Shown piece after piece: positions 30,467 to 46,490 of a stretch of DNA of 51,715 bases. Each line of letters starts with the position of its first letter. Position 1 is the first letter of the stretch. The stretch spans positions 1 to 51,715 of the forward strand of contig JACQQX010000029.1 of the NCBI GenBank assembly GCA_016206805.1, read 5' to 3'. The notes under the pieces are model-generated. The model did no database searches, was not told the origin of the DNA, and saw only the letters and a program-made list of their open reading frames with translations. The stretch comes from Candidatus Omnitrophota bacterium. Lineage in GTDB: Bacteria; Omnitrophota; Gorgyraeia; 2-02-FULL-51-18. The translations under genes were made by a program, and so were the position numbers.

Positions 30467-32929
30467 TTAATTTGGCGATACTCTCACTTTTTCCGGAATG
30501 CGCATTCCGTAAAAGGACTTCCAGACGAAGAATAGGCCGATCAAGAAAAAGACAAAGCCGCCCATGCGGGTAGTGGCGGGATTCATCTTGATCGCGATCT
30601 CGACAGCCAGCATGCCGAACAAGGTCGAGAATTTGATAATGGGGTTCAGTGAAACGGAAGTCGTGTCTTTGAAAGGATCCCCAACGGTGTCGCCGATAAC
30701 GGTTGCGGCGTGGACCGGAGTGTTCTTTTCGCCAAAGTCGACTTCCACCAACTTCTTGGCATTGTCCCAAGCGCCGCCGGCATTGGCCATGTACATGGCC
30801 TGGAATAGCCCAAATACGGCGATCGCGATCAGATAAGCGATAAAGAAATAAGGATCAAAGAGAGCAAAAGCCAGCGTGAAGCATAAAAGGCCGAGAAAGA
30901 TATTCCACATGCCCTTCTGGGCATATTCGGTGCAGATTTTAACCACCATGATCGAATCCTCGCGCCGAGCCTCTTTCTTGTCGAGATTCAAGTGCTTCTT
31001 GATGTATTCCACGGCCGAATAAGCTCCCGTCGTTACCGCCTGAATGGAAGCGCCGCAGAACCAGTAAATCACGGCGCCGCCGCAGAGAAAGCCAAGCAAA
31101 ACCGGCGCCGCGGTGAGTGAGAGTTTTTGATAAAGCAGGCTCTCGCCGATATTCTCGGCCACAGCGCTTCCTCCGGCGGCCGCGACAGCCGCCTCCTGGA
31201 GATGCTCTTGCAACAGGAGGATAATCGAAAAAATCATGGTTGTGGCGCCGGCAACAGCGGTTCCGATGAGCACTGGTTTTGCCGTTGCTTTGAAAGTATT
31301 GCCCGCCGAATCATTGGCTTCCAGATAATGCTTGCCCGTTTTAAAATCCGGCTTGAAACCAAAGTCTTTTTCGATTTCTTTCTCGATGCCGGGTATGTGT
31401 TCGGTCTGGGCCAATTCAAAAATGGACTGGGCATTGTCGGTGACCGGGCCATAGGAGTCGACGGCGATATTCACAGGGCCCATGCAGAGAAAGCCATAGG
31501 CGACAAGACCGAAAGCGAAAATGGAGGCATGCGGCATGATGTTTTGCAATCCCATTCCCGAGATGAGATAGGCCGCGAACATCAAGCTCGCGATGAGAAT
31601 GCCCTTCCAAAATGCTGAGAAAGAACCGGCGACGATACCCGATAAAATGGTCAGCGACGCTCCCCCCTCCCGAGAAGCTGTTACGATTTCGTGGACATGC
31701 TTGGAATGGGAAGACGTAAAGATCTTCGTAAACTCCGGAATAAGAAAAGCGGCCATCGTTCCGCAGGCGATAATGGAAGCCAGCTTCCACCACAACGTGG
31801 GGTCCGGAAGATCGCCAACCAGAAGGTACGACATGCCATAAGAGGTGGAGATGCAAAGAGCCGTTGCGATCATGATAAGGCGCGTCAGCGGCTGTTCAAA
31901 ATCAAACTTCTTGAGCCCCTTGTACTGCCGCTCGGATATGATTTTATTAATGAAATAGGACACGCCCGACATAAAGTCCATCAAGAAACGCATCGCGAAT
32001 ATCCAGACAATCAGCTTGGCTTGAAGCGTCGGGTCCTTAATCGCCAGCGTGATAAAGGAAATAAGCGCCACACCGGTCACGCCATAAGTTTCAAAACCAT
32101 CGGCGGTCGGCCCCACCGAGTCGCCGGCATTGTCGCCGGCGCAATCGGCGATAACCCCGGGATTGCGCGGATCATCTTCCTTGACCTTAAAGACGATTTT
32201 CATGAGATCCGAACCGATATCGGCGATCTTCGTGAAAATGCCGCCGGCGATGCGAAGCGCGCTCGCCCCCAGCGACTCGCCGATGGCGAAACCCAGGAAA
32301 CAATACCCCACGATATCGCGCGGCACAAAAAGAAGGATAGTGACCATCATCACCAGTTCCACCGAAATGAGAAAAAGCCCCACCGACATGCCGGCCCGCA
32401 GCGGAATATTCACCACGTCCCAGGGAATCCCGCGCAAAGAGGCAAAAGCGGTCCGCGCGTTGGCGTAGGTATTCACGCGAATGCCGTACCAAGCCACCAG
32501 CGTTGATCCGGCCATGCCCACGACGGAAAAAAACAGCACCAGGCCCAAAGTGCTCATGGACTCATGCTGAAGCCCGACAAAGTAATACGCCATGGCCAGC
32601 GCGATGATTCCAAAAAGCATGGCCAGGAATTTCACTTGCTGCTTGAGATAAGTCGTGCAGGTTTGGAAAATCGTTTCGGCGACATCCAGCATCGACCGAT
32701 GCGAAGGAAGGGCTTTGATCCGGATAAACTGATAAAGGGACAGCCCTACGGTCCCCAAGATAATCATCGCCCCATAAAGGAGGATTTGAAAACCGGTCAG
32801 TCCGCCAAATAATTCAAAGCGCCCCTCATGCAGATCCGGAATCTTAAGATCCGCTTCACTGGCCCAAGCGGCCCCCTGCGCCGCGAAAAACGTGGCAAAC
32901 CCCATAGCCCGGCGGAAAAAAATCTTCAT
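30467..32929 (-). CDS. hppA: membrane-bound proton/sodium-translocating pyrophosphatase
   Basis: Polytopic protein with H+-PPase motifs (GGIFTKIADIGSDL, DNAGDSVGP, GDTVGDPFKD). Confidence 0.92.
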   Translation of the reverse strand: MKIFFRRAMGFATFFAAQGAAWASEADLKIPDLHEGRFELFGGLTGFQILLYGAMIILGTVGLSLYQFIRIKALPSHRSMLDVAETIFQTCTTYLKQQVKFLAMLFGIIALAMAYYFVGLQHESMSTLGLVLFFSVVGMAGSTLVAWYGIRVNTYANARTAFASLRGIPWDVVNIPLRAGMSVGLFLISVELVMMVTILLFVPRDIVGYCFLGFAIGESLGASALRIAGGIFTKIADIGSDLMKIVFKVKEDDPRNPGVIADCAGDNAGDSVGPTADGFETYGVTGVALISFITLAIKDPTLQAKLIVWIFAMRFLMDFMSGVSYFINKIISERQYKGLKKFDFEQPLTRLIMIATALCISTSYGMSYLLVGDLPDPTLWWKLASIIACGTMAAFLIPEFTKIFTSSHSKHVHEIVTASREGGASLTILSGIVAGSFSAFWKGILIASLMFAAYLISGMGLQNIMPHASIFAFGLVAYGFLCMGPVNIAVDSYGPVTDNAQSIFELAQTEHIPGIEKEIEKDFGFKPDFKTGKHYLEANDSAGNTFKATAKPVLIGTAVAGATTMIFSIILLLQEHLQEAAVAAAGGSAVAENIGESLLYQKLSLTAAPVLLGFLCGGAVIYWFCGASIQAVTTGAYSAVEYIKKHLNLDKKEARREDSIMVVKICTEYAQKGMWNIFLGLLCFTLAFALFDPYFFIAYLIAIAVFGLFQAMYMANAGGAWDNAKKLVEVDFGEKNTPVHAATVIGDTVGDPFKDTTSVSLNPIIKFSTLFGMLAVEIAIKMNPATTRMGGFVFFLIGLFFVWKSFYGMRIPEKVRVSPN

Positions 32930-33036
32930 ACTCCCCCTCGATTTTTTAGGTTCTTATTTACTGACCAACAGTTAAGTAAGATCAATCGGCCCCTATGTTA
33001 CCCCAACACCGCCAAATCTGGCAAATAGGTTTATAC

Positions 33037-33065
33037 TTGGCCAAACCCCACAGATGCTTTACAAT
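33037..33065 (+). promoter_or_regulatory. candidate promoter TTGGCC-17-TACAAT for tRNA-Glu
   Basis: The -35 box is at 33037-33042 and the -10 box at 33060-33065, 14 nt upstream of the tRNA 5' end. Confidence 0.5.
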
Positions 33066-33079
33066 AGCCTCACTTTTCA

Positions 33080-33154
33080 GACCCCATCGTCTAGCCTGGC
33101 TTAGGACATTACCCTTTCACGGTAAGAACACGGGTTCGAATCCCGTTGGGGTCG
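33080..33154 (+). tRNA. tRNA-Glu (anticodon UUC)
   Basis: Hand-folded cloverleaf: acceptor GACCCCA/TGGGGTC, D stem GTCT/GGAC, anticodon stem TTACC/GGTAA with loop CTTTCAC, T stem ACGGG/CCCGT, T loop TTCGAAT. CCA is not encoded. Confidence 0.9.
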
Positions 33155-33181
33155 CTTTTCGTTTCCCCAGCGGGATTCGAA
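33135..33181 (+). repeat. 17-bp hairpin formed by the tRNA 3' half and an inverted copy of it
   Basis: ttcgaatcccgttgggg (33135-33151) pairs with ccccagcgggattcgaa (33165-33181) with one G-U pair and a 13-nt loop. Confidence 0.8.
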
Positions 33182-33318
33182 AAGAGCATTGCGGCCCGCA
33201 GATAAAAGCGACGTGCCACAAAGGCACGTCGCAAATTCCATCCGCAATGCGACTGGCCGACCCGGAACGAGCACAGCTGAGCGGCCGGAGGCCGCGAAGA
33301 CTGCGCAGTGCAGGGCGC

Positions 33319-33336
33319 CGAATCCCGTTGGGGTCG
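33319..33336 (+). repeat. 18-nt direct duplicate of the tRNA-Glu 3' end (att-like scar)
   Basis: cgaatcccgttggggtcg is identical to 33137-33154. Confidence 0.85.
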
Positions 33337-33464
33337 TGGATTCGACTCGGCCCGCTTCATGAAAAATGGAGCGGGCCTCGCTCACCACTGGCGTGGCTCA
33401 CTTATATGGCCGAGGCGAATCCATGGTGAGCGAACGACGAGCCTAGCGAGGAGTGAGTCGAACC

Positions 33465-33728
33465 ATGTGGTATACCTACATTCTTTTGTGCTCAGACCAA
33501 AGCCTCTACGTCGGTTCAACTTCAAATGTCCTTCGTAGATTCGAAGAACACTCGACTGGCCATGGAGGAGACTATACTCGTCAGCGTTTGCCGTTAAAGC
33601 TTATACATTCAGAAAAGCATGTTGATAAGACCATCGCCGAAAACCGCGAAGCCCAAATCAAACGCTGGACTTATCGAAAAAAACTGGCATTGGTGGAGGG
33701 AAATCTCGGTTTACTCAAGAAGCTTTAA
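33465..33728 (+). CDS. GIY-YIG nuclease family protein (YhbQ/UPF0213-like)
   Basis: Contains the MWYTYILLCSDQSLYVGSTSNVLRRFEEH and REAQIKRW motifs. ATG at 33465 (the track gives GTG 33453). Confidence 0.8.
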   Translation: MWYTYILLCSDQSLYVGSTSNVLRRFEEHSTGHGGDYTRQRLPLKLIHSEKHVDKTIAENREAQIKRWTYRKKLALVEGNLGLLKKL

Positions 33729-33830
33729 GTGCTAAATCAATCCGGCCAACAAGCAGTCAAAAAAAGACTTGACCCCTTTACGACCCCTTTACCACTACAG
33801 ATTTGGTATACCACGCCTAAAATAGGTCAA

Positions 33831-33873
33831 AAATCAAAAGAAAAGAGGCAAGGCCAAAAATTCTGACCTTGCC
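33831..33873 (-). terminator. intrinsic terminator after the YjzC-like ORF
   Basis: Stem ggcaagg/ccttgcc (33847-33853 / 33867-33873), followed on the minus strand by tcttttcttttgattt. Confidence 0.5.
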
Positions 33874-33884
33874 CCCGGCTTGAA

Positions 33885-34058
33885 TTAATGCTTAGTCTTG
33901 TCGACTAAGATATAAGTCTCACCTGATCTGCGGGTCGGTGGAAGAGGCTCGTTTTTTACGACGGTCCTTTCAACACCGCTTCGACCGCCTCGTGTTCCAA
34001 TAATTTCATATTGGCCAGAACGAGGGGCAGAAGCACCCGGCTTTAATTGCTTGGGCAT
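33885..34058 (-). CDS. YjzC-like small protein (57 aa), absent from the ORF track
   Basis: Hand translation: MPKQLKPGASAPRSGQYEIIGTRGGRSGVERTVVKNEPLPPTRRSGETYILVDKTKH. This fits the KPG..AP.SG.Y...G.RG...LPPT pattern of YjzC-type proteins. An AGGTGA ribosome-binding site is present. Confidence 0.6.
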   Translation of the reverse strand: MPKQLKPGASAPRSGQYEIIGTRGGRSGVERTVVKNEPLPPTRRSGETYILVDKTKH

Positions 34059-34113
34059 GTTTCACCTGAGCTTTTGAGTTGATCGCCGACTCCAAGAACA
34101 AGAGAACTTTCTC

Positions 34114-34141
34114 TTGACCTTCTTAGAAGCTTACTTATAAT
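34114..34141 (+). promoter_or_regulatory. near-consensus sigma70 promoter TTGACC-16-TATAAT
   Basis: The -35 box is at 34114-34119 and the -10 box at 34136-34141. Confidence 0.6.
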
Positions 34142-34145
34142 ACCG

Positions 34146-34212
34146 AGCCATAGGTTGCAACTATGGCCGAGAGTTATGGGGAGTCGCTAGGCTTCCCTAC
34201 TCTCGGTTTTTT
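34146..34212 (+). ncRNA. candidate small RNA of about 65 nt (promoter, two hairpins, U-tract terminator)
   Basis: Hairpin 1 is gccatag/ctatggc (34147-34167). Hairpin 2 is ccgagagt...actctcgg (34167-34206) with an inner gggga/ttccc extension, followed by TTTTTT (34207-34212). No ORF. Confidence 0.45.
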
Positions 34213-34280
34213 ATTTTACTTCTAATATGTCAATAATTCAAACTTAAAATTAAGTCATTACTGCAAACATGTTTACACCG

Positions 34281-34309
34281 TTGACATCTATCAACCTATA
34301 TGATATAAA
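34281..34309 (+). promoter_or_regulatory. promoter TTGACA-17-TATAAA placed for a leaderless XRE transcript, with overlapping 5-6-5 inverted repeats
   Basis: The -10 box ends 7 nt before ATG 34317. The inverted repeats gttga-n6-tcaac (34280-34295) and tgata-n6-tatca (34301-34316) could be operators. Confidence 0.5.
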
Positions 34310-34316
34310 GTTATCA

Positions 34317-34634
34317 ATGCAAACCCTTCCATTCTATGCCTCGATAGGCCAGCGCATTCAAGCATTTAGGAAGAAAAAAGGTCTGACCCAGAAACAATTA
34401 GCCGATGCGACTAAGCTCAGTCGGACTTCTATTACTAATATAGAAAAAGGACGTCAGAAAATTTTAGTGCATACTTTGTTTGAGCTTGCTTCTGCTTTAG
34501 CAATAGAAGTACCCACCCTTTTTCCTGAAAAAGAAAACCCTAAAGGGTTATCAATGACATCAGAAAAAATCAAGAAGCTCCCAAAAGAGGAAAAAAATTG
34601 GGTCATGAAAATTAAAAGTAGAGAGGTGATCTGA
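34317..34634 (+). CDS. XRE-family helix-turn-helix transcriptional regulator
   Basis: HTH_3-type sequence IGQRIQAFRKKKGLTQKQLADATKLSRTSITNIEKGRQ. I prefer ATG 34317 (MQTLPF) over the track start at 34269. Confidence 0.85.
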   Translation: MQTLPFYASIGQRIQAFRKKKGLTQKQLADATKLSRTSITNIEKGRQKILVHTLFELASALAIEVPTLFPEKENPKGLSMTSEKIKKLPKEEKNWVMKIKSREVI

Positions 34635-35158
34635 TGGGTATTTCGCAGAAAAAAATCAGAGAAAAAACAGAAGATATTTTACGATGGGCAAAAATTAATG
34701 AGCCAGCGGTTCCTGTTGAAAAAATTGCGGAACAACTGAATCTCCAGATTATTTATGAACCGTTCGAAGGTACTTTGTCAGGTTGTGTGATCAGGGAAGA
34801 TGGCAAAGCGAGGATTGGCGTGAATTCAAACGACCATGAAAATAGACAGCGTTTTACAATTGCCCATGAAATAGGCCATTTTTTGCTACATGAAGGAGAA
34901 GAAGTATTTGTAGATCATGGATTTAGGATCAATCGCCGGGATGTAAATTCTAGTTTGGTCCAAGAACCGGAAGAAATAGAAGCGAATGATTTCGCGGCAG
35001 AATTATTAATGCCAGTAAAATTTATAAAACGAGATATTGAAGAGAAACAAATAGACCTTGAAAATGATAAGACGGTCCAAGCTTTAGCGAAGAAATACAA
35101 AGTTAGTGTGCGGGCTTTTAGTTATCGACTTGCGAATTTAGGTTACATTCTTGCGTAA
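34634..35158 (+). CDS. ImmA/IrrE-family (COG2856, DUF955) zinc metallopeptidase
   Basis: HEIGH motif in FTIAHEIGHFLLHEG, a downstream EANDFAAELLMP, and a TGATG overlap with the XRE gene. Confidence 0.85.
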   Translation: MGISQKKIREKTEDILRWAKINEPAVPVEKIAEQLNLQIIYEPFEGTLSGCVIREDGKARIGVNSNDHENRQRFTIAHEIGHFLLHEGEEVFVDHGFRINRRDVNSSLVQEPEEIEANDFAAELLMPVKFIKRDIEEKQIDLENDKTVQALAKKYKVSVRAFSYRLANLGYILA

Positions 35159-36281
35159 CTCACGGGTTATTAATTCTCCCTCGGTTGTGGGTTTATTTTC
35201 TGGATGTGGCGGTCTTGATCTTGGTTTTAAAAGGGCGGGTTATCAAACAATTTGGGCGAATGATATAGACCCTGATGCGTGTGAAACTTATAAAAAAAAT
35301 GTCGGTGAAAAGATTATAACAGGGGATATTTGGCAATTATTAAACAAAGTGCCAAAAGCAGACATAGTTATAGGTGGTCCTCCTTGTCAGGCTTTTTCTT
35401 TGGTTGGTAAAAGGCTAGAAAATGACCCTAGGGGCAGATTAGTTTTTGCTTTTTCAGAAATAATAGAACGCCTTAATCCTCGCGTTTTTGTTATGGAAAA
35501 CGTTCCTGGATTAGCAGCATCTGAAATTGATGGCAAACGGTTAACCCAAGTACTTGCTAAGAAATTTATGAGGGCTGGATATGAGGTTAAAATTTGTAAA
35601 TTAACAGCTACAGATTTTTTTGTACCTCAAAAACGTAGTCGGATTGTTATGCTTGGTTTTAGACCAAAGAAATCTTATAAACACCAATTTTTAACGCAAT
35701 TAGAATTTTCTTCAGTTTTGGGTGATAAAGATCTTTCAGCTCCTGTATCGGCTCACGAAGCCTTGGACGATTTACCACCACCCTCCTTAGAAAAATTTGT
35801 CGAATTAAGAAGTTATAAAAAAATGCCACATTCCCCTTATGCGCGTCTTATGAGGCAAACTTCTAATGGTAAAGTATCTCTCCAAGTTATGCCGACGATG
35901 TCGGACAAGGATAAAGAATTTGTCCGCCATATAAAACCGGGCGGTAATTACATGGATATTCCTAACTCTGTATCAACGCCACGTATTTTAAAATTCAAAA
36001 AAAGTGGGGGCCGAACAACTACTTATGGTCGTTTACATCCAAATAGGCCTGCATATACAATCAACACTTTTTTTAACAGGCCAAATGTAGGTGCTAATTA
36101 TCATTATTCTGAGGAACGTTTGATTACACCAAGAGAAGCATTACGACTTCAATCTTTCCACGACTCTTTTGAAGTGGTATATCGGTCACAAAGGAGTTTG
36201 CATATGCAAATAGGCAATGCTGTACCACCCTTAATGGCAAGGGCTATTGCAGAATCGATAAAAGGATACTTTAAGAATTGA
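35151..36281 (+). CDS. dcm: DNA (cytosine-5)-methyltransferase
   Basis: Motifs I FSGCGGLDLGF, IV PPCQAFS, VI ENV, VIII QKRSR and X QIGNAVPP. The start is uncertain (TTG 35151 or GTG 35187). Confidence 0.9.
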   Translation: MRNSRVINSPSVVGLFSGCGGLDLGFKRAGYQTIWANDIDPDACETYKKNVGEKIITGDIWQLLNKVPKADIVIGGPPCQAFSLVGKRLENDPRGRLVFAFSEIIERLNPRVFVMENVPGLAASEIDGKRLTQVLAKKFMRAGYEVKICKLTATDFFVPQKRSRIVMLGFRPKKSYKHQFLTQLEFSSVLGDKDLSAPVSAHEALDDLPPPSLEKFVELRSYKKMPHSPYARLMRQTSNGKVSLQVMPTMSDKDKEFVRHIKPGGNYMDIPNSVSTPRILKFKKSGGRTTTYGRLHPNRPAYTINTFFNRPNVGANYHYSEERLITPREALRLQSFHDSFEVVYRSQRSLHMQIGNAVPPLMARAIAESIKGYFKN

Positions 36282-37642
36282 TTGTAGAGAATCTAACAGA
36301 CATAAACCAACGTCCAGAGTTAGGCCAAGTGTGGACACCTGCCAATATTGCAGAGGCTATGGTTATCAGTGCCTTCAAAGAATATGGAGATTCTTTGCCA
36401 GAAACAGTGGTTGACCCAGCATGTGGACCAGCTACATTTGAAATCGCAATGCATCGAACTGGGTATATTCCTAACCAAATATTAGCAATAGATTGTGACA
36501 ACCAATTAGTAGGGTATACGGAAAAAGTAGCGAATGATTTACAATTACCCGTTATCGCCCATAAATCCGATTATTTGTTGATGTTTAAATTAAAGGGAAC
36601 AGCAGATATAGTGATTATGAACCCTCCTTATATTAGGCATGAAAACCTCTCAGATCAGATTAAAGGGCAGGTTTTTGAATATTTATCCGAAGAATTAGAT
36701 TTTTCCTTTGATCGTCGATCTAATTTGTATTGTTATTTTTTATTAAAGGCAATTTTAGATTTGAAAGTCGGTGGTGTGCTTTGTGCCATCGTATACGATT
36801 CATTAAAGAATACAATGTATGGTAAGAGAGTCTCTGAAATATTGAGGCAGTATACGGATTTAATATCTTCTCAAAATACTCTTGCCCCTTTTCAAAACGT
36901 CTTAGTCGATGCCCAAATCCTTATTTGCCGAAAACGCCTAGATAGGAATAAAAAAATAGACGAAAAGAACGAAGAAGTTTGTAAAAGGGGCCATACAAAG
37001 TTATCAGATTTACTTGTTATGCAGCGTGGTACGGCTATCCCTTTTAGGAAAGTATTTATAGCTAAACCGGAAGATCCTTATTTTGAAACCTCTCGGCCTT
37101 TTTTTGCAAAACAAAATAAGATAGATGGCCTTCTGCTCAATAAAGCACCGGAAAGGTGTTACATGGTTAATGATAACATTAACCCATTGGTTAAGCGGTG
37201 GATAAGAAATCGCCTCAAGGTTTTTGGGAAAGAAGTCAATTCAATAAATGTCCGTCCGGTTAAAGGGAAGATCCTTTTTAATTATTATGTTCGAAGCAGG
37301 CCGCGGCATTTATTTAACCCCACACAAATTCCTGTTTCGGATAATTTTTATGTATCTGAACCAATTAACGGGTTTCCAGCGGAGGCTGCATGGCTCCTAT
37401 TGAATAGTAGTGGTTACATAAAGCCTATATTGGAAGCGGGTAGGAGCCAGGGTAGCGGTTTAACGAAATTGCAACTTTTCGAATATAGAAATTCTATTGT
37501 TCCAGATTGGCGTTTGCTAACTTCCAAAAAAATAAATACAATCCAAACAGAAGCCGTTGGTTTATTAAAAAAAGCAACAAGTTTTGACAAAGTCCAAGAG
37601 TGCGCTAACCAGGCATATTCCGATGTTTCAAAACATTTTTAG
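36278..37642 (+). CDS. gamma-class N6-adenine DNA methyltransferase (Eco57I-M/TaqI-like)
   Basis: GQVWTP, DPACGPATF (motif I) and IMNPPYIRHE (motif IV), with a C-terminal recognition-type region. The TTG start overlaps the dcm stop. Confidence 0.8.
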   Translation: MIVENLTDINQRPELGQVWTPANIAEAMVISAFKEYGDSLPETVVDPACGPATFEIAMHRTGYIPNQILAIDCDNQLVGYTEKVANDLQLPVIAHKSDYLLMFKLKGTADIVIMNPPYIRHENLSDQIKGQVFEYLSEELDFSFDRRSNLYCYFLLKAILDLKVGGVLCAIVYDSLKNTMYGKRVSEILRQYTDLISSQNTLAPFQNVLVDAQILICRKRLDRNKKIDEKNEEVCKRGHTKLSDLLVMQRGTAIPFRKVFIAKPEDPYFETSRPFFAKQNKIDGLLLNKAPERCYMVNDNINPLVKRWIRNRLKVFGKEVNSINVRPVKGKILFNYYVRSRPRHLFNPTQIPVSDNFYVSEPINGFPAEAAWLLLNSSGYIKPILEAGRSQGSGLTKLQLFEYRNSIVPDWRLLTSKKINTIQTEAVGLLKKATSFDKVQECANQAYSDVSKHF

Positions 37643-37655
37643 GGCGCATTAAATA

Positions 37656-40277
37656 ATGTCTTCTATAACACCTGACCGCTTACCTTCATATACTGACGAC
37701 GAGATTGAGTATTTCCACCCGTTCTTTGAATTTGCTGGCCGCAAAGCCTTGCATTCTTCTGGCCTCGAATCATCAATTATTTTAGTCCACCATAAAGATA
37801 TCAATGGTATTACTGTTGATTTTTCATTTGAGAGAACAGAAAACAAAAGAATAGTCCTATTGGTAGAGATTAAACGTACCCCTGCTGCAATGTCGTCAAC
37901 CCGTTACAGATATCAAGCCCTAAGTTACCGAAAAGAGGCTGATGCTAATGCTGACACACCTTATTACGTTTTAACTAACCTTGAGAAAGCCGATATTTTT
38001 AAATACGATCCTAATAGACCAAGGGTTGCAAGCCAAATTATTTACGGCTCCCCATTTAATATCGGTAGTTTCCAAACTACGGCTTTACCTGAATTTTTAG
38101 TTAACTTAGAAAGGTTTATAAAAACATCTTTAGAAATAGCCCTGAATAATACCGGTGAATATGAAGAAAATTTAGATAAATTGAACGATGTTTTGATTAC
38201 CAATATTTCCTCTGCTGGCAATTGGCACAAAATTTTAATGCCTATATCTTACGAATATGTACGTGGCGCATCAATCCATTACCCCTCATTAAAAGCTCGT
38301 TTGAGAGAAGGGCATTGGGAAGTGGCAGACCGTTACAAGTCTCAGCCGTTAAGGTTGAGGGAAAAAGGGTCGTCGGTTGATTTTGAAAATATTTTTCGAG
38401 ACCCTTTACCAGACCCGGATCATCCTATTGCATTTGATAGGGATCTTTTACACAGTGGGCATATATCGGGTCAGCTAAGGGCAAATGGAGAGGACCTGGC
38501 TAGTTTAGTACAGGAATTAATCGAAAAACATAGCACGCTTCCCGATGGTCCTGGTATCGTAGAAACTGATGATGAATTGGCTCGTTTGCTTGCTATAAGT
38601 GCTTCTGATGCTCTTGATAGGCAGCTTATTCCAAATGACATAGTGTGCGACCCGGCAGCTGGAACGGGAAGGCTTTTAACGGCTGCACATTCTTTGATAT
38701 TCCAAAGTTTGGGGCCTCAGCAATGGTGGGCAAATGAAATTAACCCGTTTTTCTCAGAGCCACTTTGTTTAAGGTTGGGTTTGGATCATGCTAATGAATT
38801 GCGCCAAGGCAATGTTCCAAAAATTACAATTGCAGATATAGTGGATTTAGAACGTTCTGATTTTACAAATGTAAAAGTAATCCTAATGAATCCACCCTTC
38901 CTTTCCGGAATACAAGCCACAAATGAGAAAAGACGTTTTGCGCAAGCCATTGAAAGGGTAACAGGAAGCAGATCATTAGTTAATGCAGGTCAGATTGGAC
39001 TTGAGGCTCTTTTCCTGGAATTAGTTTGGGGGCTTGCTCCAGAAGATGCAGTTATAGCTTGCATCTTGCCTTTTCAAATTTTAATGAGGAAAAGCGATGA
39101 AATGCAATTGTTTAGGCGTTTTTTGGTTGAAAAATTTGGGTTAACACATTTAATCTCATATCCAAGAGAAGGTCTATTTGAAAGGGTAATGAAAAGGACA
39201 TTGATAGCAGTAGGTAGAAAAAATTTTGGTGGAACATCTGTTAAATGCATAGATGTAAGGATGCCGCTTGAACGAGTCGATTATCACGATTTACTTTCTG
39301 CGCTTCAAAATGCTAGGACCCAACTAGGTCGCGCTGCCACTTTAAAAATAACACCTAAACAAGAATTGCAAAATTCGATACCGAACGGGTGGGGGTTAGG
39401 GAGTGTGTTAGCACGGGCAAATGAATGGGTTGAAACAAATTTGTCAAATTTTAGGCAACTAGACAGAGTTGCTGCTGGCCTCAAGCGTGGTACGTCAGGC
39501 AACTCAGGTTGTTCGGATTTATCAGCTATTAAACCAAATGGTCCTATTTCTGCACTCCTCCCCTTAATCCCCCAAAACTGGCGTTGTCCGTCCATTAATA
39601 ATTCAGACGATTTTCCTAAAGTCCTTACTCAAGAAAACCCGCAAACATTATCCCCATTACTGCCTAATGAAGCTTGGACAACGGGTAGTTCCGAAAGTGC
39701 TACTTTGGATAAAATAATAAATGAATATCTAAGGATTAAAAGCGCGAGGCCTAACGCACGAGGAACTCAGGCGGTAGCTGAACGTAGCCTTGAGACGGCG
39801 CGCAGAGCAATTTATAGGGATGTAAAAATATTTTCAGCTAATTCGGTGCTAATCCCAAGGGCATCCCGTATTTTAGCAAGAATAGGTGTGTTACGAGATC
39901 CGTATGTTGTCTCAACGAATTTTATTGTGGTTAGTATGAACGACTTCGAAAACACCCTCTTAACCGCTAGTTGGCTATCGAGTGTTTTTTCACAAATCCA
40001 GATGGAAGCTTTAAATAATGATCAAGAAGGAATGCGAAAATTAGAAAAAAGACAAATTGCCCTTCTTCATATACCTGATTTTTCTAGGATGTCTAATGAG
40101 GAAAAACAATCAGCAACTCAGGCATTTCATAATGATCCACCGCTTAATTCACAACATCCAACACTAAGAAATTTAGATATGGTTTGGTTGAAATTAGCCT
40201 TCCCTGGGAAACCTAATAGTTTTTTAAACGACGCCTTTGCATTAATGGCAGATCTTTGCGAGGAAAGGTCTTCGTGA
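37656..40277 (+). CDS. type IIG-like fused restriction endonuclease / N6-adenine methyltransferase (873 aa)
   Basis: The N-terminus has a PD-(D/E)XK pattern, D55 ... E71-I-K73 (TVDFSFE...LLVEIKR), like HSDR_N-type nucleases. Methylase motifs CDPAAGTGRLL and LMNPPF follow, then a long C-terminal region. Confidence 0.7.
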   Translation: MSSITPDRLPSYTDDEIEYFHPFFEFAGRKALHSSGLESSIILVHHKDINGITVDFSFERTENKRIVLLVEIKRTPAAMSSTRYRYQALSYRKEADANADTPYYVLTNLEKADIFKYDPNRPRVASQIIYGSPFNIGSFQTTALPEFLVNLERFIKTSLEIALNNTGEYEENLDKLNDVLITNISSAGNWHKILMPISYEYVRGASIHYPSLKARLREGHWEVADRYKSQPLRLREKGSSVDFENIFRDPLPDPDHPIAFDRDLLHSGHISGQLRANGEDLASLVQELIEKHSTLPDGPGIVETDDELARLLAISASDALDRQLIPNDIVCDPAAGTGRLLTAAHSLIFQSLGPQQWWANEINPFFSEPLCLRLGLDHANELRQGNVPKITIADIVDLERSDFTNVKVILMNPPFLSGIQATNEKRRFAQAIERVTGSRSLVNAGQIGLEALFLELVWGLAPEDAVIACILPFQILMRKSDEMQLFRRFLVEKFGLTHLISYPREGLFERVMKRTLIAVGRKNFGGTSVKCIDVRMPLERVDYHDLLSALQNARTQLGRAATLKITPKQELQNSIPNGWGLGSVLARANEWVETNLSNFRQLDRVAAGLKRGTSGNSGCSDLSAIKPNGPISALLPLIPQNWRCPSINNSDDFPKVLTQENPQTLSPLLPNEAWTTGSSESATLDKIINEYLRIKSARPNARGTQAVAERSLETARRAIYRDVKIFSANSVLIPRASRILARIGVLRDPYVVSTNFIVVSMNDFENTLLTASWLSSVFSQIQMEALNNDQEGMRKLEKRQIALLHIPDFSRMSNEEKQSATQAFHNDPPLNSQHPTLRNLDMVWLKLAFPGKPNSFLNDAFALMADLCEERSS

Positions 40278-40558
40278 GATTGGGCCAATCTAAACAAACC
40301 ATTAACAAAAGATCTAAAAAAATAGTTAGCTATACTATGTCTTGCATTGGAAATGTGTCAGTTGTTGACAATTGACACGCTCTGTCTATCTTATATGGCA
40401 TCCCAGATCCGCCAAAAGAGACATGTTCAAAAAATTGAATTCCTCGGATAAAATTATCCGGCATTGCTCAGTTCTCTGGTGTAAACCGGACGCCGCCCCG
40501 CTGGGAAGCGTTGAGCTTATAGAATTCTGGCGCATCCCGTTTAGATATTGTCCACGCC

Positions 40559-40596
40559 CCCCCGCCAATTTAAAAAGTTGCCGGGGGTATTTTTTT
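40559..40596 (+). terminator. intrinsic terminator-like hairpin plus T-tract
   Basis: cccccgccaa (40559-40568) pairs with ttgccggggg (40578-40587) with one mismatch, followed by tattttttt. Confidence 0.45.
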
Positions 40597-40743
40597 GGAA
40601 TAGACTTGGAGCGATTGGCCAACGTGTCCATCCGGACTTATGTGTCAAGGGCGCGAATTAGGTTCAATTAGATGTATCAGGAGTTTAATTCCTTATACAC
40701 CAATGAGTTATGAATTTTGAATTAAATTAAAACTAAAGATATT

Positions 40744-41445
40744 ATGCAGATGAAACGATTCGTTATTGGTGACATTCATGGAGGCCACAAGGCTCTCGTA
40801 CAGTGTCTCAAGAGATCAAAATTTGATCCGGAGAAGGATCTATTGATCTCGCTTGGGGATATCTGTGACGGCTGGCCTGAAGTCAACAAAGTGATTGATG
40901 AGTTTTTGCGTATTAAGAATCTCAAGGTTATTCTGGGAAACCACGACGAATGGACCCTTCGCTGGATGAAAGACGGATGGATGGAAGATATCTGGACTAG
41001 CCAAGGCGGACTAGCAACAATGGAGTCCTACCAGCGCGACAGAGCCCGTGTTCCAAAATCTCATAAAAATATTTTACAATCAGCTTTGCTTTTCCTCGAG
41101 CTAGACAATAAATTATTCGTCCACGGCGGAGTCAATCCGGGTGTGGAACTGACGAAGCAGGACCCGCAGTTTCTCCTGTGGGACAGGGATTTACTGAATG
41201 ATGCTGTCCGGGTCAGCAAGAAGAGCCCCGATCATCGTTATGGAAAATGGGATGATATTTTTGTTGGGCACACCACGACGGAGGTTTACAAAACGCTGAA
41301 GCCGGTGCATGCTTGCAACATGTGGGCTTTGGACACTGGCGGCGGTTGGAGCGGCAAACTCACGATCATGGACATCGACAGCCATGAATACTGGCAGTCG
41401 GATCTTGTGCCGGATTTATATCCGCACATTCCTGGGCGGCGTTGA
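40744..41445 (+). CDS. metallophosphoesterase, lambda-phosphatase/PrpA-like Ser/Thr phosphatase
   Basis: GDIHG, GDICDGW, GNHDE and VGHT motifs in the canonical order. Confidence 0.8.
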   Translation: MQMKRFVIGDIHGGHKALVQCLKRSKFDPEKDLLISLGDICDGWPEVNKVIDEFLRIKNLKVILGNHDEWTLRWMKDGWMEDIWTSQGGLATMESYQRDRARVPKSHKNILQSALLFLELDNKLFVHGGVNPGVELTKQDPQFLLWDRDLLNDAVRVSKKSPDHRYGKWDDIFVGHTTTEVYKTLKPVHACNMWALDTGGGWSGKLTIMDIDSHEYWQSDLVPDLYPHIPGRR

Positions 41446-41602
41446 TCAAAGGCGAGGCGATTGCTCAACACCCGGCTGGATTGGATGGCGGATCCGTCCC
41501 GAAGCAGGACGCTTTGCATTGTTCGCTGGGGTCGCCATTCGGATGGCCCAAAGCGTCCGGTTAAACCGGATTGAAAGTCGGGTTGGCGGGGCGCTTTGTT
41601 AT

Positions 41603-41631: not shown

Positions 41632-41674
41632 TTAGTAAGAAAGTAGGAATAAGTCAGAAAATAGGAGAAAAGTG

Positions 41675-41917
41675 ATGGTAACCCGAATGAGAGAGAAAGG
41701 GCAAGTGACGATCCCGATGAGCATACGAAAAGCGCTTCACCTTTCGAAGGATTCGATCTTGTCGGTGGCGAAGGTGGGCAATGGCATTTTCATCGCTCCT
41801 GGGCCTTCGAAGTTTGAAGCCTTTGCCAACAAGTTTTCGAAAGAGGCCGAGAAAAAAGGCATTACTCTGGAGGAGCTTCTGCGGGATCTAAGAAAAGTCC
41901 GCAAAGAAAAAACCTGA
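41675..41917 (+). CDS. AbrB/MazE/SpoVT-family antitoxin
   Basis: MREKGQVTIPMSIRKAL is a swapped-hairpin motif. An AGGAG ribosome-binding site lies 7 nt upstream of ATG 41675. TGATG overlap with the PIN gene. Confidence 0.75.
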   Translation: MVTRMREKGQVTIPMSIRKALHLSKDSILSVAKVGNGIFIAPGPSKFEAFANKFSKEAEKKGITLEELLRDLRKVRKEKT

Positions 41918-42381
41918 TGGGCGCTCCGCCATACAGGATTTTCTTTGATACCAGCGCATACATCGCCGGGTTACATTCGCCTGAGAGCGCGGCGCGGGAG
42001 CTTTTAAATATGGCGGCGTCGGAAACGATCGCCATGGTCGTTTCTGAAAAGGTTATCACGGAAATTGACCGCGTGATGACTAGAAAATTTCCCGATTTGG
42101 TTCAGGAAAGCCGGCAGATTTGGAAAAACCTGAAGCCGGAAGTTGTTCCAAATCCATCGACAAGCGCCGTCAAGCCCTTCTTGGAAAAGCTCGATAAAGC
42201 CGACGCCGCTATTTTGTGCTCCGCGCATTTGGCTAAAGTTTCGGCATTCGTGACCTGGAACACGCGTGACTTCATGGCGCATGGGATAAGCGCCCTTGTT
42301 GATTTCCCTATAGTGGTCCCGGCGAACGCGCTGAAGCTGTTCAGAAAATGGATAGAGCCGTTTTTAGATTACCATAATTAA
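41917..42381 (+). CDS. PIN-domain toxin (ribonuclease)
   Basis: FFDTSAY with an acidic residue, ADAAILCSA, and VTWNTRDF, typical of PIN toxins. Confidence 0.75.
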   Translation: MGAPPYRIFFDTSAYIAGLHSPESAARELLNMAASETIAMVVSEKVITEIDRVMTRKFPDLVQESRQIWKNLKPEVVPNPSTSAVKPFLEKLDKADAAILCSAHLAKVSAFVTWNTRDFMAHGISALVDFPIVVPANALKLFRKWIEPFLDYHN

Positions 42382-42587: not shown

Positions 42588-45500
42588 TTAGGCGGGAGGC
42601 GGAACAGCCGCTTCTACGTCTTCAGGCTCAACCTTAGCGACGGTGGTGACGCGGTCGTTTTCTTTTTTGAGGTTAATGAGGCGGACGCCCTGGGCAACCC
42701 GGCCAGTTTCGCGGATGTCCTTGACGGAGCAGCGCACGACCATGCCTTCTTTGGTCATGATCATGACGTCATCTTTGCCGCCGACGCATTTGAGACCGAC
42801 GACTTCGCCGTTTTTCTCGGTGACCTTGATGTTGGTGACCCCCTTGCCGCCGCGGGAAGTGACGCGGTATTCATTCACGAGCGACCGCTTGCCAAACCCT
42901 TTTTCGGTGACGGAAAGCAGCGTCGCGTCCTTATCCACCACTTCCATGCCGATCAAATAGTCTTTTCCATCCAGCGTAATGCCGCGCACACCGCCGGCGG
43001 CGCGCCCCATGCTGCGCACCAAAGTCTCAGGGAAACGAATGGCCTTGCCTTCGCGAGTGGCCAGAAAGATTTCCTGCTTGCCATCGGTTAGCTCGGCTTC
43101 GATGAGCTCATCTTTGGGGTCAAGTCCGATAGCGACGATGCCGCTGCGGCGGGTATTCTCAAAGTCGGTCAAATCGCATTTTTTAATCTGCCCTAAACGC
43201 GTGGCCATCACGATGTACTGCCCTTCCGTAAACTGGCGCACCGGCATGTAGGAGGTGATCTTCTCCCCTTGCGCCAATGAGACAAAGTTGGCGATGAATT
43301 TGCCCTTGGAAATACGGCTGGCCTGAGGAATCTCATGCACCTTGATGACAAAGGCTTTGCCTTTCGAGGTGAAAAGCAGCAGGTTGTCATGGGTAGAAGC
43401 GACAAAAAGGTGCTCAACAAAGTCCTCTTCGACGCCGCCCGAACCCACGCCCACGCCGCCGCGCTTTTGTTTGCGGTAAGTCGTCACCGGCAGGCGCTTC
43501 ACATAGTTTTGATGGCTGATCGTGACCACCACGTCTTCGTCGGCGATCAAGTCTTCGACATCAAACTCGGTATCCAGGCTGCGGGCGATCTCCGTGCGGC
43601 GCTCATCGCCGTATTTTTCCTTCAGCTGAGCGAGCTCTTCCTTCACAATTTCAAGAACTTTCTTTTCGGACTTCAAAATCGACTCGAGATACTCGATTCG
43701 TTTCAGAAGCTCTTTGTATTCCTCTTCGAGCTTATGAATTTCAAGGCCGGTGAGCTTTTGAAGCTGCATTTCCAGGATCGCCTGGGCCTGCTTGTCTGAA
43801 AACTCATAGGTTTCCACGAGCGCGACTTTCGCCTCGGCGGGATTCTTGGACTTCCGGATGGTTTTGATGATTTTGTCGAGAATGTCAACGGCTTTTTTCA
43901 AACCCTCGACGATATGCGCGCGGGCCTTGGCTTTTTCCAGGTCAAACTGGGTGCGGCGGATGATGATTTCCTTGCGATGACGGATGTATTCGTGAATGAT
44001 TTCCTTGAGTTTCAAAACCTTGGGGCTGCCGTCCACCAGCGCCAGCAGGATAATGCCAAAAGTCGTCTGCATCTGCGTGTGCTTGTACAAAAGATTGAGC
44101 ACCACCTGCGCGTTGGCGTCCCGCTTCAAATCAATCACAAGCCTCATGCCGTCTTTATCCGACTCATCGCGCACGTCGGAGATGCCTTCGATCTTTTTGT
44201 CGTTGACGAGAGCCGCGATATTTTCGATCAGATTGGCCTTATTCACCTGATAGGGAATTTCGGTGATCACAATGGCCTGTTTGTTGTTTCTGATCTCTTC
44301 CACACCGGCCTTGGCGCGAATCTTGAGCAGTCCCCGGCCGGTTTCGTAAGCGGACTTGATGCCTTCGGTCCCGCAAATCGTGGCCGCCGTCGGGAAATCG
44401 GGACCCTTGATATGTTTCATCAATTCTTTGGTCTCGATCTCGGGGTTGTCGATTTGCGCGGCGATGGCGTCGGCTACTTCTTTCAAATTGTGCGGCGGAA
44501 TGTTGGTCGCCATGCCCACGGCGATGCCGCTGGAGCCGTTGCAAAGGAGGTTGGGAAGTGTCGCCGGCAACAGCGTGGGCTCTTCCAGCGTCTCGTCGAA
44601 ATTGGGCGCAAAATTGACCGTCTCCTTCTCAATGTCCCCCAGCATCGCGTCCGTGATGCCGGCCAGCCGCGCTTCGGTGTTGTGGTTAATAAAACCATTG
44701 GCGACAAATGAGTGACAGTCACTATCAACTTTTATGGAGTAGACCCGCGCGGGCGCGGTTTTTTCTATTTGGCAGACGGGGTCAAAGAAATACCGATTCC
44801 TCAAGAGATCCTCCATCAGCGCCGACGCTTCAGGCTGGGTTCGCGGCGCCAGGGCAAAGGCGACGGAAGCGGCGTGCTCTTGGAGACCGGCATACCGGTC
44901 AAAGTTGTGCTTCCTCACAAAATCGCGTTTGGACCATGCCGTCTTTTTGTCAAGCCTTGATCGAACGAAGCGGCTTAGAAAGGGGATGAAGTCCGTGCGC
45001 GACGAAACTTTGTGATATCGACTCAGCGCCATCTGAAGCCTTTCGTTCTTGCGCATGGAGACAAAACCGATTTCTTTCTGGAAATTCCGATAATTGTCCA
45101 TGCCCCTGATGTACAGTTTGTGCATCGCGCGGTGCTTATCAAAACGCTTGGTGGAAGCGATGCCAAATCTTAGAAGCAAAATCTGAATCTGCCGAATAAG
45201 CGTCTGGCTCGAAGAAACGCAAGAAAGCTCCGCCATCTTTTGTCCGCTGACAGACACACCGCCGTCACCCTCAAAATAAGCGCGAAGGAATGCCGCGACC
45301 ATCGCGCGGGGGGATCTGAGAAGAAGATGCGGTATCTCCCGATACGGGGACTTGGCGGGCGAAAGGCCTATCGCCCGCAGGAACGCGATCACCTGCCCCG
45401 AATGGATCTCCCGCGTCTGGTAAGGTTTCTTGCCGTAAGAGCTGGGTCGTCGCGTGAAAGCATGCAGTCGGCAGTCAGGAAACACGCGCCGCCAGCGCGC

Positions 45501-46430
45501 GTCGAACTCTTCCAGCCACTGAGGATCGCTGTTGCAAAATTCAAGCTCCTTTTCTTTGAGCGTGCCCTCGGAAACAAGGGCGCCTAAAATAAAAGCCAGA
45601 TCCTCCGAGAAGAGCTTGGGAAGTATTTTGGGCTGTGTTCGTCCCCGCGCTTCCGGCCAATAACCAACCAAAGACGCGGGCTCTTCCGGCCACAGCTGAT
45701 CCGGAGTCCTGTCGATCACCGCGACATCGCCGACGCCCAGTTGACTCAATAGCTTCCACCGAAAATCCGGCCGGCCCGTCTGGGGGTCAGCCGCCCATGT
45801 CAGAATGGGATGATTATAAGACCCCCGCAGGGAGAAGCCCCGCCCCGTTGTAATTTTGAGCGTGGGATGCGTTCCGCTGTCGAACCATTTTGAAGCCGAA
45901 TGAACCCTGCCCTCGCGTGAAAGAACCAGCGTATCGATCTCTTCGGTGCCGCCGGAATACTCCCGGCGGGACAATAATTCCGCGATGGGAATAAGTCCCT
46001 GATCCGTGACCATCAAGGTATCCCCGGTCACGCAATAGCGCATCGCGGCCGGGCTGTCGCCGTCGACGGAGCCGAAATTACCCTGGCCGTCGACCAACGG
46101 ATAGCGCAGGGAGAAATCCTGAACCATGCGCACCAGCGTGTCATACACCGCCGTGTCCCCGTGAGGATGGAATTTTCCAAGGACCTCGCCTACGATGCGG
46201 GCGGATTTCTTGTAAGGTTTGGAGTGGTCCAGCCCCAGCTCGCGCATCGCGTAAAGGATGCGGCGATGCACCGGCTTCAGGCCGTCGCGGACATCCGGCA
46301 GGGCGCGCCCGACGATGACGCTCATCGCGTAATTGAGGTAGGACGTTTTCATCTCCTGCTCGATGAAAACGGGGACTATTTTTTCGTTCTTGGCGTATTT
46401 ATTTTCCGTTTTTTCTGTTTTATCGGCCAT
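42588..46430 (-). CDS. gyrA: DNA gyrase subunit A (intein-containing precursor)
   Basis: GyrA motifs [12 protein letters not shown] and AAMRY/TEARL, plus the C-terminal beta-pinwheel. I place the start at ATG 46430 (MADKTEK). Confidence 0.95.
44679..46034 (-). mobile_element. GyrA intein (452 aa) with LAGLIDADG homing-endonuclease domain
   Basis: It is inserted directly after the catalytic Tyr: AAMRY | CVTGDTLMV ... [11 protein letters not shown] | TEARL. Block B is SYNHP. LAGLIDADG-type motifs are [12 protein letters not shown] and [12 protein letters not shown]. Confidence 0.9.
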
Positions 46431-46490
46431 GCTAAATATCCAGGTTCCGCACCTCGCGCGCGTCCGCCACAAAGCACGGCGGATGCGCTG

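Follow-up and report, generated by a model that had tools for sequence, protein, structure and literature searches.

Control of type II restriction-modification (RM) systems is thought to rest on promoter strength, on autoregulation of the methylase or on small C proteins, and we know of no control among these that lets expression answer infection or DNA damage. If a cleavable repressor stood in front of a restriction operon, the RM system would become inducible, and the logic of the CapH/CapP regulators would be extended from abortive infection to front-line defence. Here, we describe a candidate for such an arrangement in contig JACQQX010000029.1 (assembly GCA_016206805.1) of Candidatus Omnitrophota, a stretch of 51,715 nucleotides (nt) that is called the window below and to which all positions refer. 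Its five genes in question encode, in order, an XRE-family repressor, an M78-family (COG2856) metallopeptidase, a C5-cytosine DNA methylase (Dcm), an N6-adenine (N6A) DNA methylase and a predicted RM fusion enzyme of the BpuSI family (Table 1).

The closest described RM system is that of BpuSI itself, whose operon holds two extra methyltransferases (MTases), an amino-MTase and a C5-MTase, and whose RM gene could not be cloned without both (PMC3185434). The catalytic residues of BpuSI are E21, D60, E76 and K78, accompanied by a histidine triad (H26/H50/H51), and the substitutions D60A and E76A abolish cleavage (PMC3185434). The closest described regulators are CapH, a repressor, and CapP, a peptidase: their gating of CBASS has been characterised, their relatives adjoin DISARM and ubiquitin-like operons, and the published CapH/CapP-like regulators all lie on the strand opposite their target operon (bioRxiv 10.1101/2022.04.27.489752). 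CapP is built of peptidase (residues 1–141), helix-turn-helix (HTH; 142–182) and GAF (182–288) domains, with single-stranded DNA (ssDNA) lying between the peptidase and GAF domains, and has a cysteine-switch loop that is not present in all CapP homologues (10.64898/2026.05.16.725639). The peptidase ImmA, by comparison, has no GAF domain (PMC6868357).

A first-pass annotation, made from the letters of the window alone, had proposed that the five plus-strand open reading frames (ORFs) form one packed unit. Indeed, all five are present in the window, every motif quoted at that stage is found in their translations, and the gene identities are borne out by matches to Pfam HTH_3, Peptidase_M78, DNA_methylase, Eco57I and the BpuSI domains. 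The junctions also lie where they had been placed: the repressor and peptidase genes overlap in a TGATG at 34632–34636, the two companion methylase genes overlap by 4 nt (36278–36281, with a TTG start), and a gap of 13 nt precedes the RM gene at 37656. The 8-nt overlap claimed between the peptidase and dcm genes (35151–35158) holds if dcm starts at TTG 35151 and becomes a gap of 28 nt if it starts at GTG 35187. A scan of the window found no terminator-like sites on the plus strand between the five genes. Additionally, a low-GC stretch from ~34150 to ~40400 coincides with them, their GC content at third codon positions (GC3) being 0.36, 0.30, 0.26, 0.32 and 0.31 in order, as against 0.40–0.74 in flanking genes and 0.66–0.69 in the clearly resident genes for pyrophosphatase and GyrA; the GC content of peptidase-family genes elsewhere ranges from 0.33 to 0.66, with a median of 0.51. 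Tight junctions, no internal plus-strand terminator and a common low GC3 are best read as the marks of a single unit that would comprise both the regulatory pair and the RM genes, and from them we infer co-transcription of the five genes. On balance, and with modest confidence, we regard the locus as a horizontally acquired BpuSI-family RM system with a CapH/CapP-like pair joined to the head of its operon.

The RM fusion, a protein of 873 amino acids (aa), aligns over its full length to RM.BpuSI (PDB 3S1S; residues 8–871 against 13–869, E 3.5e-164), matches Pfam BpuSI_N (2.8e-26) and BpuSI_TRD (9.1e-23) and is ~37% identical by BLASTP to the BpuSI entry (P0147). A PD-(D/E)xK nuclease, an N6A methylase and a target-recognition domain share the one chain. 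The nuclease motif D55...E71-x-K73, first noticed by eye, aligns with BpuSI D60/E76/K78, and a residue-by-residue check at a constant offset of 5 pairs E16, H21, H45, H46, D55, E71 and K73 with BpuSI E21, H26, H50, H51, D60, E76 and K78. Across a 20-member family alignment E16, H21, D55, E71, K73 and N412-P413-P414 are invariant, and a search of that alignment for missing nuclease residues found the catalytic set intact; the methylase motifs are DPAAGTG (332–338) and NPPF (412–415). By its alignment, therefore, the 873-aa protein is a predicted type IIS/IIG enzyme of the BpuSI family with all nuclease and methylase catalytic residues in place. BpuSI recognises GGGAC and cuts at 10/14, with stimulation by SAM; the recognition site of the window enzyme is not derivable, because identity to BpuSI is only ~37%. 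The BpuSI site GGGAC/GTCCC occurs 62 times in the window, where 85.4 +/- 8.9 occurrences are expected, which is a weak hint given that specificity may differ at this identity, and it is absent from 32755–41180 (8.4 kb), for the 6.2-kb low-GC part of which a base-composition estimate gives ~5. This scarcity could reflect site avoidance if the enzyme keeps BpuSI specificity.

The two companion methylases were equally recognisable. The C5-methylase matches Pfam DNA_methylase (7.3e-68) and PADLOC MTase_II (1.4e-92). Its start codon is uncertain: the product from TTG 35151 is absent from the records of the protein collection and GTG 35187 is the sole other in-frame start, and TTG 35151 is favoured because Dcm relatives carry 5–14 residues ahead of the GLFxGCGG motif. 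The N6A methylase matches Pfam Eco57I (1.6e-12) and N6_Mtase (1.2e-5) and shows the motifs GQVWTP, DPACGPATF and NPPY; a BLASTP comparison of it with the RM fusion, made to see whether the two share a recognition domain, returned nothing significant.

For comparison, 75 BpuSI-family loci were gathered, 73 from genomes and two from metagenome contigs (L006 and L007 lie on the same contig); scanning genome contigs with a single RM protein had returned 0 loci, and the 73 were obtained with the 20-sequence alignment. In almost every one of them that retains upstream sequence, the genes for a C5-methylase, an Eco57I-type methylase and the RM enzyme stand side by side. The cytosine methylase had been taken at first for an addition to the known layout, which is wrong, since the BpuSI prototype (PMC3185434) and nearly all family loci have all three genes. 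The order Dcm-N6A-RM is that of the window's own clade (L005–L009, L012 and L013), and N6A-Dcm-RM is found in most others. Two loci, L024 and L074, yielded no separate Dcm ORF and have an RM-matching ORF of ~1,200 aa, which suggests a Dcm-RM fusion; the database homologue P0232 (1,216 aa) bears both Pfam domains. Judged by homology, the C5-methylase and N6A methylase of the window are the presumed counterparts of the C5-MTase and amino-MTase companions of BpuSI. If the BpuSI site applies, a cytosine methylase would be needed for the other strand, because the asymmetric GGGAC has adenine on one strand only. As an RM system the trio is ordinary, its one contribution being a new and divergent member of the BpuSI family.

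The repressor matches Pfam HTH_3 (1.3e-13), and its best PADLOC match is capH (1.1e-14), followed by RM control-protein models (2.5e-9); the closest solved relatives of its HTH are the controller proteins C.BclI and C.AhdI. Behind its HTH domain come a linker and, at the C-terminus, a short helix that is conserved (...EEKNWVMKI...). The protein has a tail of ~30 extra residues, and both the C-terminal E/K-x-W-hydrophobic motif and the recognition helix are conserved in relatives. The protein collection contains the exact 105-aa product of a start at 34317, and the N-termini of relatives lie at the equivalent position, so that ATG 34317 is most likely the start as judged from these comparisons. 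The alternative ATG 34269 was rejected: it lies at the centre of the putative operator palindrome described below, has no ribosome-binding site and disagrees with the start of the relatives and of the recorded product.

The partner protein matches Pfam Peptidase_M78 (3.1e-24) and PADLOC capP (6.1e-38, profile positions 3–154 of 242), and its gene has a good Shine-Dalgarno sequence (GAGAGGTGA) and the TGATG overlap with XRE. H78-E79-x-x-H82 and E116 are invariant in 22 relatives, a profile of which matches CapP (7T5T) residues 86–176 and IrrE residues 81–183. An AlphaFold2 model (pLDDT 80.8) finds its best folds in CapP 7T5T and then IrrE/PprI, the query being fully covered along with ~60% of each target (TMq 0.63, TMt 0.41). 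The window has the CapH/CapP gene order, in which an XRE protein extended at its C-terminus is encoded just ahead of an M78 peptidase with HExxH and a third glutamate ligand, and the 174-aa protein does not have the three-domain architecture (peptidase, HTH and GAF) with an ssDNA groove. Because the GAF domain that CapP and IrrE need for this groove is absent, the signal may be something other than ssDNA. Loop 94–109 (34913–34960), which lies between the HExxH helix and the third zinc ligand, is a candidate regulatory element; D94, F97 and R102 are invariant in the family, and the loop is modelled at pLDDT < 50. The peptidase family at large comprises 4,826 proteins at E <= 1e-10, mostly of 172–176 aa and 50–61% identical, and by these profile and fold matches the XRE/peptidase pair belongs to a large family of short-form (~174 aa, GAF-less) CapH/CapP-like regulators.

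The candidate operon promoter at 34281–34309 would start transcription at or beside ATG 34317 and so give a leaderless mRNA; no Shine-Dalgarno sequence was seen before either XRE ATG, 34269 or 34317. An automatic promoter scan passed over this site because it demands a T at position 6 of the -10 hexamer. The earlier placing of the promoter region at 34281–34316 agrees with an XRE start at 34317. Recurrent k-mers upstream of the XRE genes of relatives were used to build a position weight matrix (PWM; consensus GTCAATAATACAAAC) from these relatives only, the window being excluded. The PWM matches 35 of 39 upstream regions, with 9.9 hits/kb there and 0.099/kb elsewhere in the same loci (~100-fold), and its four top-scoring hits in the whole 51.7-kb window begin at 34229, 34254, 34271 (minus strand) and 34310, all at the XRE promoter, where repeats had also been seen independently of the PWM when the sequence was read. 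The second and third units form a 32-bp imperfect palindrome (34254–34285), the right arm of which contains or overlaps the -35 hexamer TTGACA, and the fourth spans the -10/start-codon region; two convergent units forming a palindrome are the typical operator layout in relatives. We regard 34229–34324 as a candidate XRE operator. Where a relative has a same-strand gene downstream, the motif is confined to the region upstream of XRE and is missing before that gene, so that any control of the genes downstream would have to act by read-through.

Taken together, these features are most economically read as a protease-gated control circuit. An XRE dimer would bind the palindrome at 34254–34285, over its own -35 hexamer, and the flanking units, and would keep the whole five-gene operon, by read-through, at low, self-limited transcription. 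On a signal, the co-translated 174-aa peptidase would inactivate XRE, by a cut expected, on the model of CapH, ImmR and DdrO, in the linker that precedes the C-terminal helix, and with the loss of XRE both methylases and the restriction enzyme would rise together. In a cell new to the operon, transcription would run unchecked until XRE accumulated, as in C-protein-controlled systems, and the methylase genes would precede the nuclease gene in the transcript. We hold it somewhat more probable than the alternatives combined that XRE autoregulates the locus as one operon, which is derepressed once the peptidase has inactivated XRE; repression, cleavage, the type of signal and the recognition site are inferred. 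The arrangement suggests restriction that is inducible by a stress signal.

The heads of BpuSI-family operons vary. Among 61 loci with a complete trio and enough upstream room, 17 have a gene for a small DNA-binding protein directly before the first methylase gene, these proteins having an HTH_17 domain in 12 cases, an XRE-type HTH in 2 and a ribbon-helix-helix fold in 3 (one weak). Interchangeable controllers thus occupy the head of the operon, which in the window holds XRE and the peptidase. Such a repressor/metallopeptidase pair was rightly called unusual at first pass, for 0 of the 75 loci have an M78 peptidase upstream of the RM system; the sole M78 match among them is an unrelated 403-aa protein encoded downstream, in L035. 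As a separate observation, the 12 operons with HTH_17 (L017, L021–L023, L030, L031, L036, L037, L045, L052, L060 and L076) open with a gene of 63–74 aa for an excisionase/MerR-like protein that overlaps or abuts the first methylase gene. This protein is likely a controller type of the BpuSI RM family, one that to our knowledge has not been characterised so far.

The neighbours of the pair were surveyed in 80 metagenome loci and several longer contigs, with neighbour counts limited to ORFs of at least 150 aa because simple greedy ORF calling is noisy in short contigs. XRE and peptidase genes stay paired across these loci, with 61 of 64 small upstream ORFs matching the XRE of the window. Upstream, the opposite strand usually carries a gene from a defence-type operon, and the divergent partners include ThiF/E1, E2, JAB/BilC, DUF6791-ThiF, Multi_ubiq and DUF2188 (Bub/Bil), a cNMP-binding cyclase, a SAVED protein and PDC-M48B. 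Downstream, where 58 loci have at least 700 nt, 18 have a same-strand gene (at least 150 aa, starting within 120 nt), 14 a convergent gene and 26 neither. The same-strand partners are an SbcB-like exonuclease (8 loci), a DprA-like protein (2), a patatin, an AAA ATPase, a GNAT-ASCH protein and DNA methylases. An RM methylase gene follows the pair directly on the same strand in ~6 of 65 distinct loci (Table 1), several of which have a Bub/Bil operon on the other side, and no terminators are predicted in the pair-methylase gaps of L160 and L171. In L002–L004, L092, L160/L161 and L171 the pair is sandwiched between a Bub/Bil operon and an RM methylase gene on its own strand, the RM systems being type III-like, Alw26I-type IIS and NotI-type II. 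The linkage that had been supposed between the pair and the RM genes has, in relatives, a mixed record: no BpuSI-type system elsewhere shows it, and similar pairs do precede other RM methylase genes. The commonest same-strand partner, a gene for an SbcB-like exonuclease I (~470 aa; PADLOC RTasSbcB 2.8e-98), was seen in L127, L133, L134, L137, L138, L147, L155 and L159, where it starts 8–24 nt after the peptidase gene or, in L127, overlaps it by 11 nt.

Table 1. Features of the predicted operon in the window, and RM methylase genes that follow related XRE/peptidase pairs.
Locus	Feature	Position	Strand	Remarks
Window	Candidate XRE operator cluster	34229–34324		four 15-nt units: 34229–34243 (+), 34254–34268 (+), 34271–34285 (-), 34310–34324 (+)
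Window	Candidate promoter	TTGACA 34281–34286; TATAAA 34304–34309	+	17 nt between hexamers; read from sequence
Window	XRE-family repressor	34317–34634 (alternative ATG 34269)	+	105 aa from 34317 start
Window	ImmA/IrrE-family M78 (COG2856) zinc metallopeptidase	34634–35158	+	174 aa
Window	C5-cytosine DNA methyltransferase (dcm)	35151–36281	+	TTG start; alternative GTG 35187
Window	Eco57I-type N6-adenine DNA methyltransferase	36278–37642	+	TTG start
Window	Predicted BpuSI-family type IIS/IIG restriction-modification fusion	37656–40277	+	873 aa
L095	Type I HsdM after pair		same as pair	21-nt gap
L092	Type III Mod after pair		same as pair	59-nt gap
L002–L004	Type III-like methylase (Mod) after pair		same as pair	304-nt gap
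L098	MT-A70 methylase after pair		same as pair	47-nt gap
L160/L161 (Elusimicrobia metagenome-assembled genome)	Fused Eco57I (m6A)+C5 methylase after pair		same as pair	82-nt gap; convergent Alw26I-type nuclease
L171	D12 methylase after pair		same as pair	39-nt gap; convergent NotI-type nuclease

At first pass no characterised example of such a system was known. In general terms this has to be amended, given that the gating of a defence operon by a repressor and a peptidase has been characterised (CapH/CapP, bioRxiv 10.1101/2022.04.27.489752, whose capH and capP are also the best PADLOC matches of the pair). The literature searched describes no type II RM operon with an XRE/peptidase pair at its head and on its strand, and no short GAF-less pair followed by RM methylase genes; the nearest published case is a DISARM system with a fused CapH-CapP (bioRxiv 10.1101/2022.04.27.489752). 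The RM trio and the regulator class (COG2856/XRE, CapH/CapP-like) are each known; their co-directional joining is seen in one locus, with suggestive parallels in relatives.

A broader possibility, which we put forward tentatively and consider less probable than not, is that short GAF-less CapH/CapP-like pairs are a general inducible switch for RM genes as well as for abortive-infection operons, driving a complete type IIS/IIG system here and methylase genes of type I, II, IIS and III systems in relatives while also facing a Bub/Bil operon. If so, a signal of damage or infection would increase restriction, protective methylation or both, perhaps to strengthen front-line defence or to limit self-restriction, and it would be sensed in a manner unlike the ssDNA-GAF mechanism of CapP and IrrE. 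A regulator family that recurs between Bub/Bil operons and RM methylase genes, together with its conserved 15-nt operator, offers leads that could reveal how first-line and second-line immunity are coordinated and how a GAF-less peptidase is triggered.

Several observations weigh against control of the RM genes by the pair. With no other BpuSI-family locus carrying an M78 peptidase at this place, the linkage is a single observation, and the two closest RM homologues (53% and 44% identity) are without the XRE/peptidase pair. Unlike CapH/CapP, the pair is co-directional with its predicted target, a type II RM operon that it overlaps, rather than divergent from it; the sole nearby gene on the opposite strand is an ORF of 57 aa ~260 nt from XRE, and many relatives do show the divergent placement. 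The peptidase is of the short form, in which a small helical domain accompanies the peptidase domain and a GAF domain is lacking, and it has no cysteine between H82 and E116, hence no cysteine switch; it could be constitutively active, or could bind without cleaving, as has been reported for Rir/Crh (PMC6868357). Promoter-like sites inside the operon, for example at 36032–36061, mean that the methylases or the RM gene could be expressed independently of XRE. Finally, the nearest peptidase relatives lie divergent from Bub/Bil-type operons, and the pair may have hitchhiked from a neighbour of this kind. This last point leads to an explanation that we consider unlikely and yet the strongest of the rivals, namely that the pair is half of a sandwich: it would regulate a divergent Bub/Bil operon that was lost or never transferred, and its adjacency to the RM genes would be defence-island packing, with no adaptive part in RM control other than incidental read-through. 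Such a history would fit the divergent ThiF/E2/JAB/DUF2188 operons that the nearest peptidase relatives flank, the 219 of 544 Bub operons reported to carry CapW or CapH+CapP (PMC13373217), the position of the pair between a Bub/Bil-type operon and an RM methylase in L002, L092, L160 and L171, its absence from the 75 BpuSI loci and the abrupt beginning of the low-GC segment ~100 nt upstream of XRE, as if cut in an intergenic region. It fits less well with a junction between the peptidase and dcm genes (-8 nt, at most +28 nt) that is tighter than in any sandwich locus (21–304 nt), with a complete operator set and promoter that have been kept, and with one composition across all five genes. Moreover, without an internal terminator the RM genes would still be under predicted XRE control, so that this rival concerns the history of the locus more than its present function.

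The resemblance of the XRE HTH to those of C.BclI and C.AhdI, the matches to PADLOC control-protein models and the small DNA-binding proteins that occupy the same position in relatives could also mean that XRE controls establishment only, acting after transfer in the manner of a C protein, while a peptidase with no known sensor domain merely turns XRE over, or is inactive, and senses no signal. We judge this improbable: all catalytic residues of the peptidase are kept, its family is 50–60% identical over thousands of members and always paired with this type of XRE, and cleavage by CapP, IrrE and ImmA answers DNA damage or other signals (bioRxiv 10.1101/2022.04.27.489752, 10.64898/2026.05.16.725639, PMC6868357). 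Least supported, and very improbable in our estimation, is a role independent of RM, with the pair acting either as a toxin-antitoxin or abortive-infection module (Xre plus a COG2856 ‘toxin’) or as the ImmR/ImmA module of a decayed mobile element. Xre-COG2856 has been listed as a candidate toxin-antitoxin-like pair in an analysis of 2009 that itself preferred a protease-repressor regulator of a third component (PMC2701414), and the toxicity of COG2856 peptidases is poorly documented, against which can be set a weak NCBIfam match to the spr1629 repressor/antitoxin family. The locus does lie beside a tRNA-Glu gene with a repeated 3' end and beside other genes of mobile type (GIY-YIG, VapBC). Nevertheless, neither the ORFs nor the Pfam matches within 30–44 kb include an integrase, excisionase or conjugation gene, an origin from a prophage or an integrative and conjugative element (ICE) was set aside on the lack of integrase and transfer genes nearby, and relatives of the pair adjoin defence operons, with an integrase nearby only in L160/L161 and L165/L167.

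The surroundings of the predicted operon contain further features. At the left edge of the low-GC segment, 34114–34215 (plus strand) has a near-consensus promoter (TTGACC-16-TATAAT, 11/12) and two stable hairpins with a U-tract (free energy -35.1 kcal/mol, z -6.1), and looks like a gene for a small RNA of ~65 nt. An Rfam search of 32900–34700 returned tRNA-Glu only, and the structured element at 34146–34215 matches no family there. The possibility that this element is a leader or attenuator of the operon was set aside, as it has its own strong promoter and terminator and a host-like GC content, and the operator cluster lies between it and the XRE promoter. Further upstream, the 57-aa ORF at 33885–34058 (minus strand) has a good Shine-Dalgarno sequence (AGGTGA), its own terminator (33876–33844), no Pfam family and host-like GC; it may resemble YjzC-type small proteins. 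The last 18 nt of the tRNA-Glu gene (33080–33155) are exactly repeated 182 nt downstream (33319–33336), and a degenerate copy (15/18) of the same 3' end lies at 41524–41541. These repeats may be att-site scars bounding an island of ~8.4 kb, in which no integrase is present.

Beyond the RM genes, a calcineurin-like phosphoesterase (Metallophos) gene stands alone at 40744–41445 (plus strand), just before the degenerate tRNA copy. Its relatives (at least 90% identical; L168–L170) belong to a conserved cluster in other metagenomes, DUF6788 / NTP_transf_8 / Metallophos / AEP-TOTE / PDDEXK_1. It was rejected as a part of the system, having a GC3 of 0.56, lying 466 nt downstream and having its at least 90% identical relatives in that unrelated cluster. 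Genes for a MazE/AbrB-type antitoxin and a PIN-domain toxin (VapBC-like) follow at 41672–42381 (plus strand), and a stand-alone GIY-YIG protein of 91 aa is encoded at 33453–33728 (plus strand); the region of 33–42 kb looks like a small island of defence and mobile genes. The GyrA ORF at 42588–46472 (minus strand, 1294 aa) reads ...AAMRY/CVTGDTLM ... /TEARL... in translation and therefore has an intein inserted at the catalytic-tyrosine motif of gyrase A.

Among known systems, BpuSI of Bacillus pumilus (PDB 3S1S; isoschizomers BsmFI and BspLU11III) has the same five-domain order, catalytic residues and operon content as the window, which differs in the gene order Dcm-N6A-RM and in a head, the XRE/M78-peptidase pair, that is found in no other family locus. 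C-protein systems (C.AhdI, C.BclI) likewise have a small XRE-family HTH protein at the head of an RM operon and repeated sites at its own promoter, as predicted here, whereas the XRE of the window has the extra tail of ~30 residues, a partner peptidase, a capH-family profile and the operator motif of that family, and is encoded upstream of the methylases and not only of the nuclease. For about 20% of capK+capS loci, a position between an R-M operon and another immune operon has been reported (PMC13373217), much as relatives of our pair lie between an RM system and a Bub/Bil-type operon; CapK/CapS are, however, a kinase/STAS pair rather than a peptidase/XRE pair, and the window has the RM side only. 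ImmR/ImmA, of ICEBs1 of Bacillus subtilis and of phage phi105, resemble the window in having a short GAF-less COG2856 peptidase encoded downstream of XRE and co-transcribed with it, and an autoregulated repressor, both of which are predicted for the window. In contrast to ImmR/ImmA, the window has no integration, excision or transfer genes, the adjoining predicted targets are defence genes, and the peptidase is closer in sequence to CapP and IrrE than to any ImmA-named profile compared. CapH/CapP of CBASS (Lau et al. 2022, Corbett laboratory) share with the window the order of XRE repressor gene and M78 peptidase gene, the best profile and fold matches, a palindromic operator at the promoter, which is predicted here, and relatives associated with defence, including ubiquitin-like operons.

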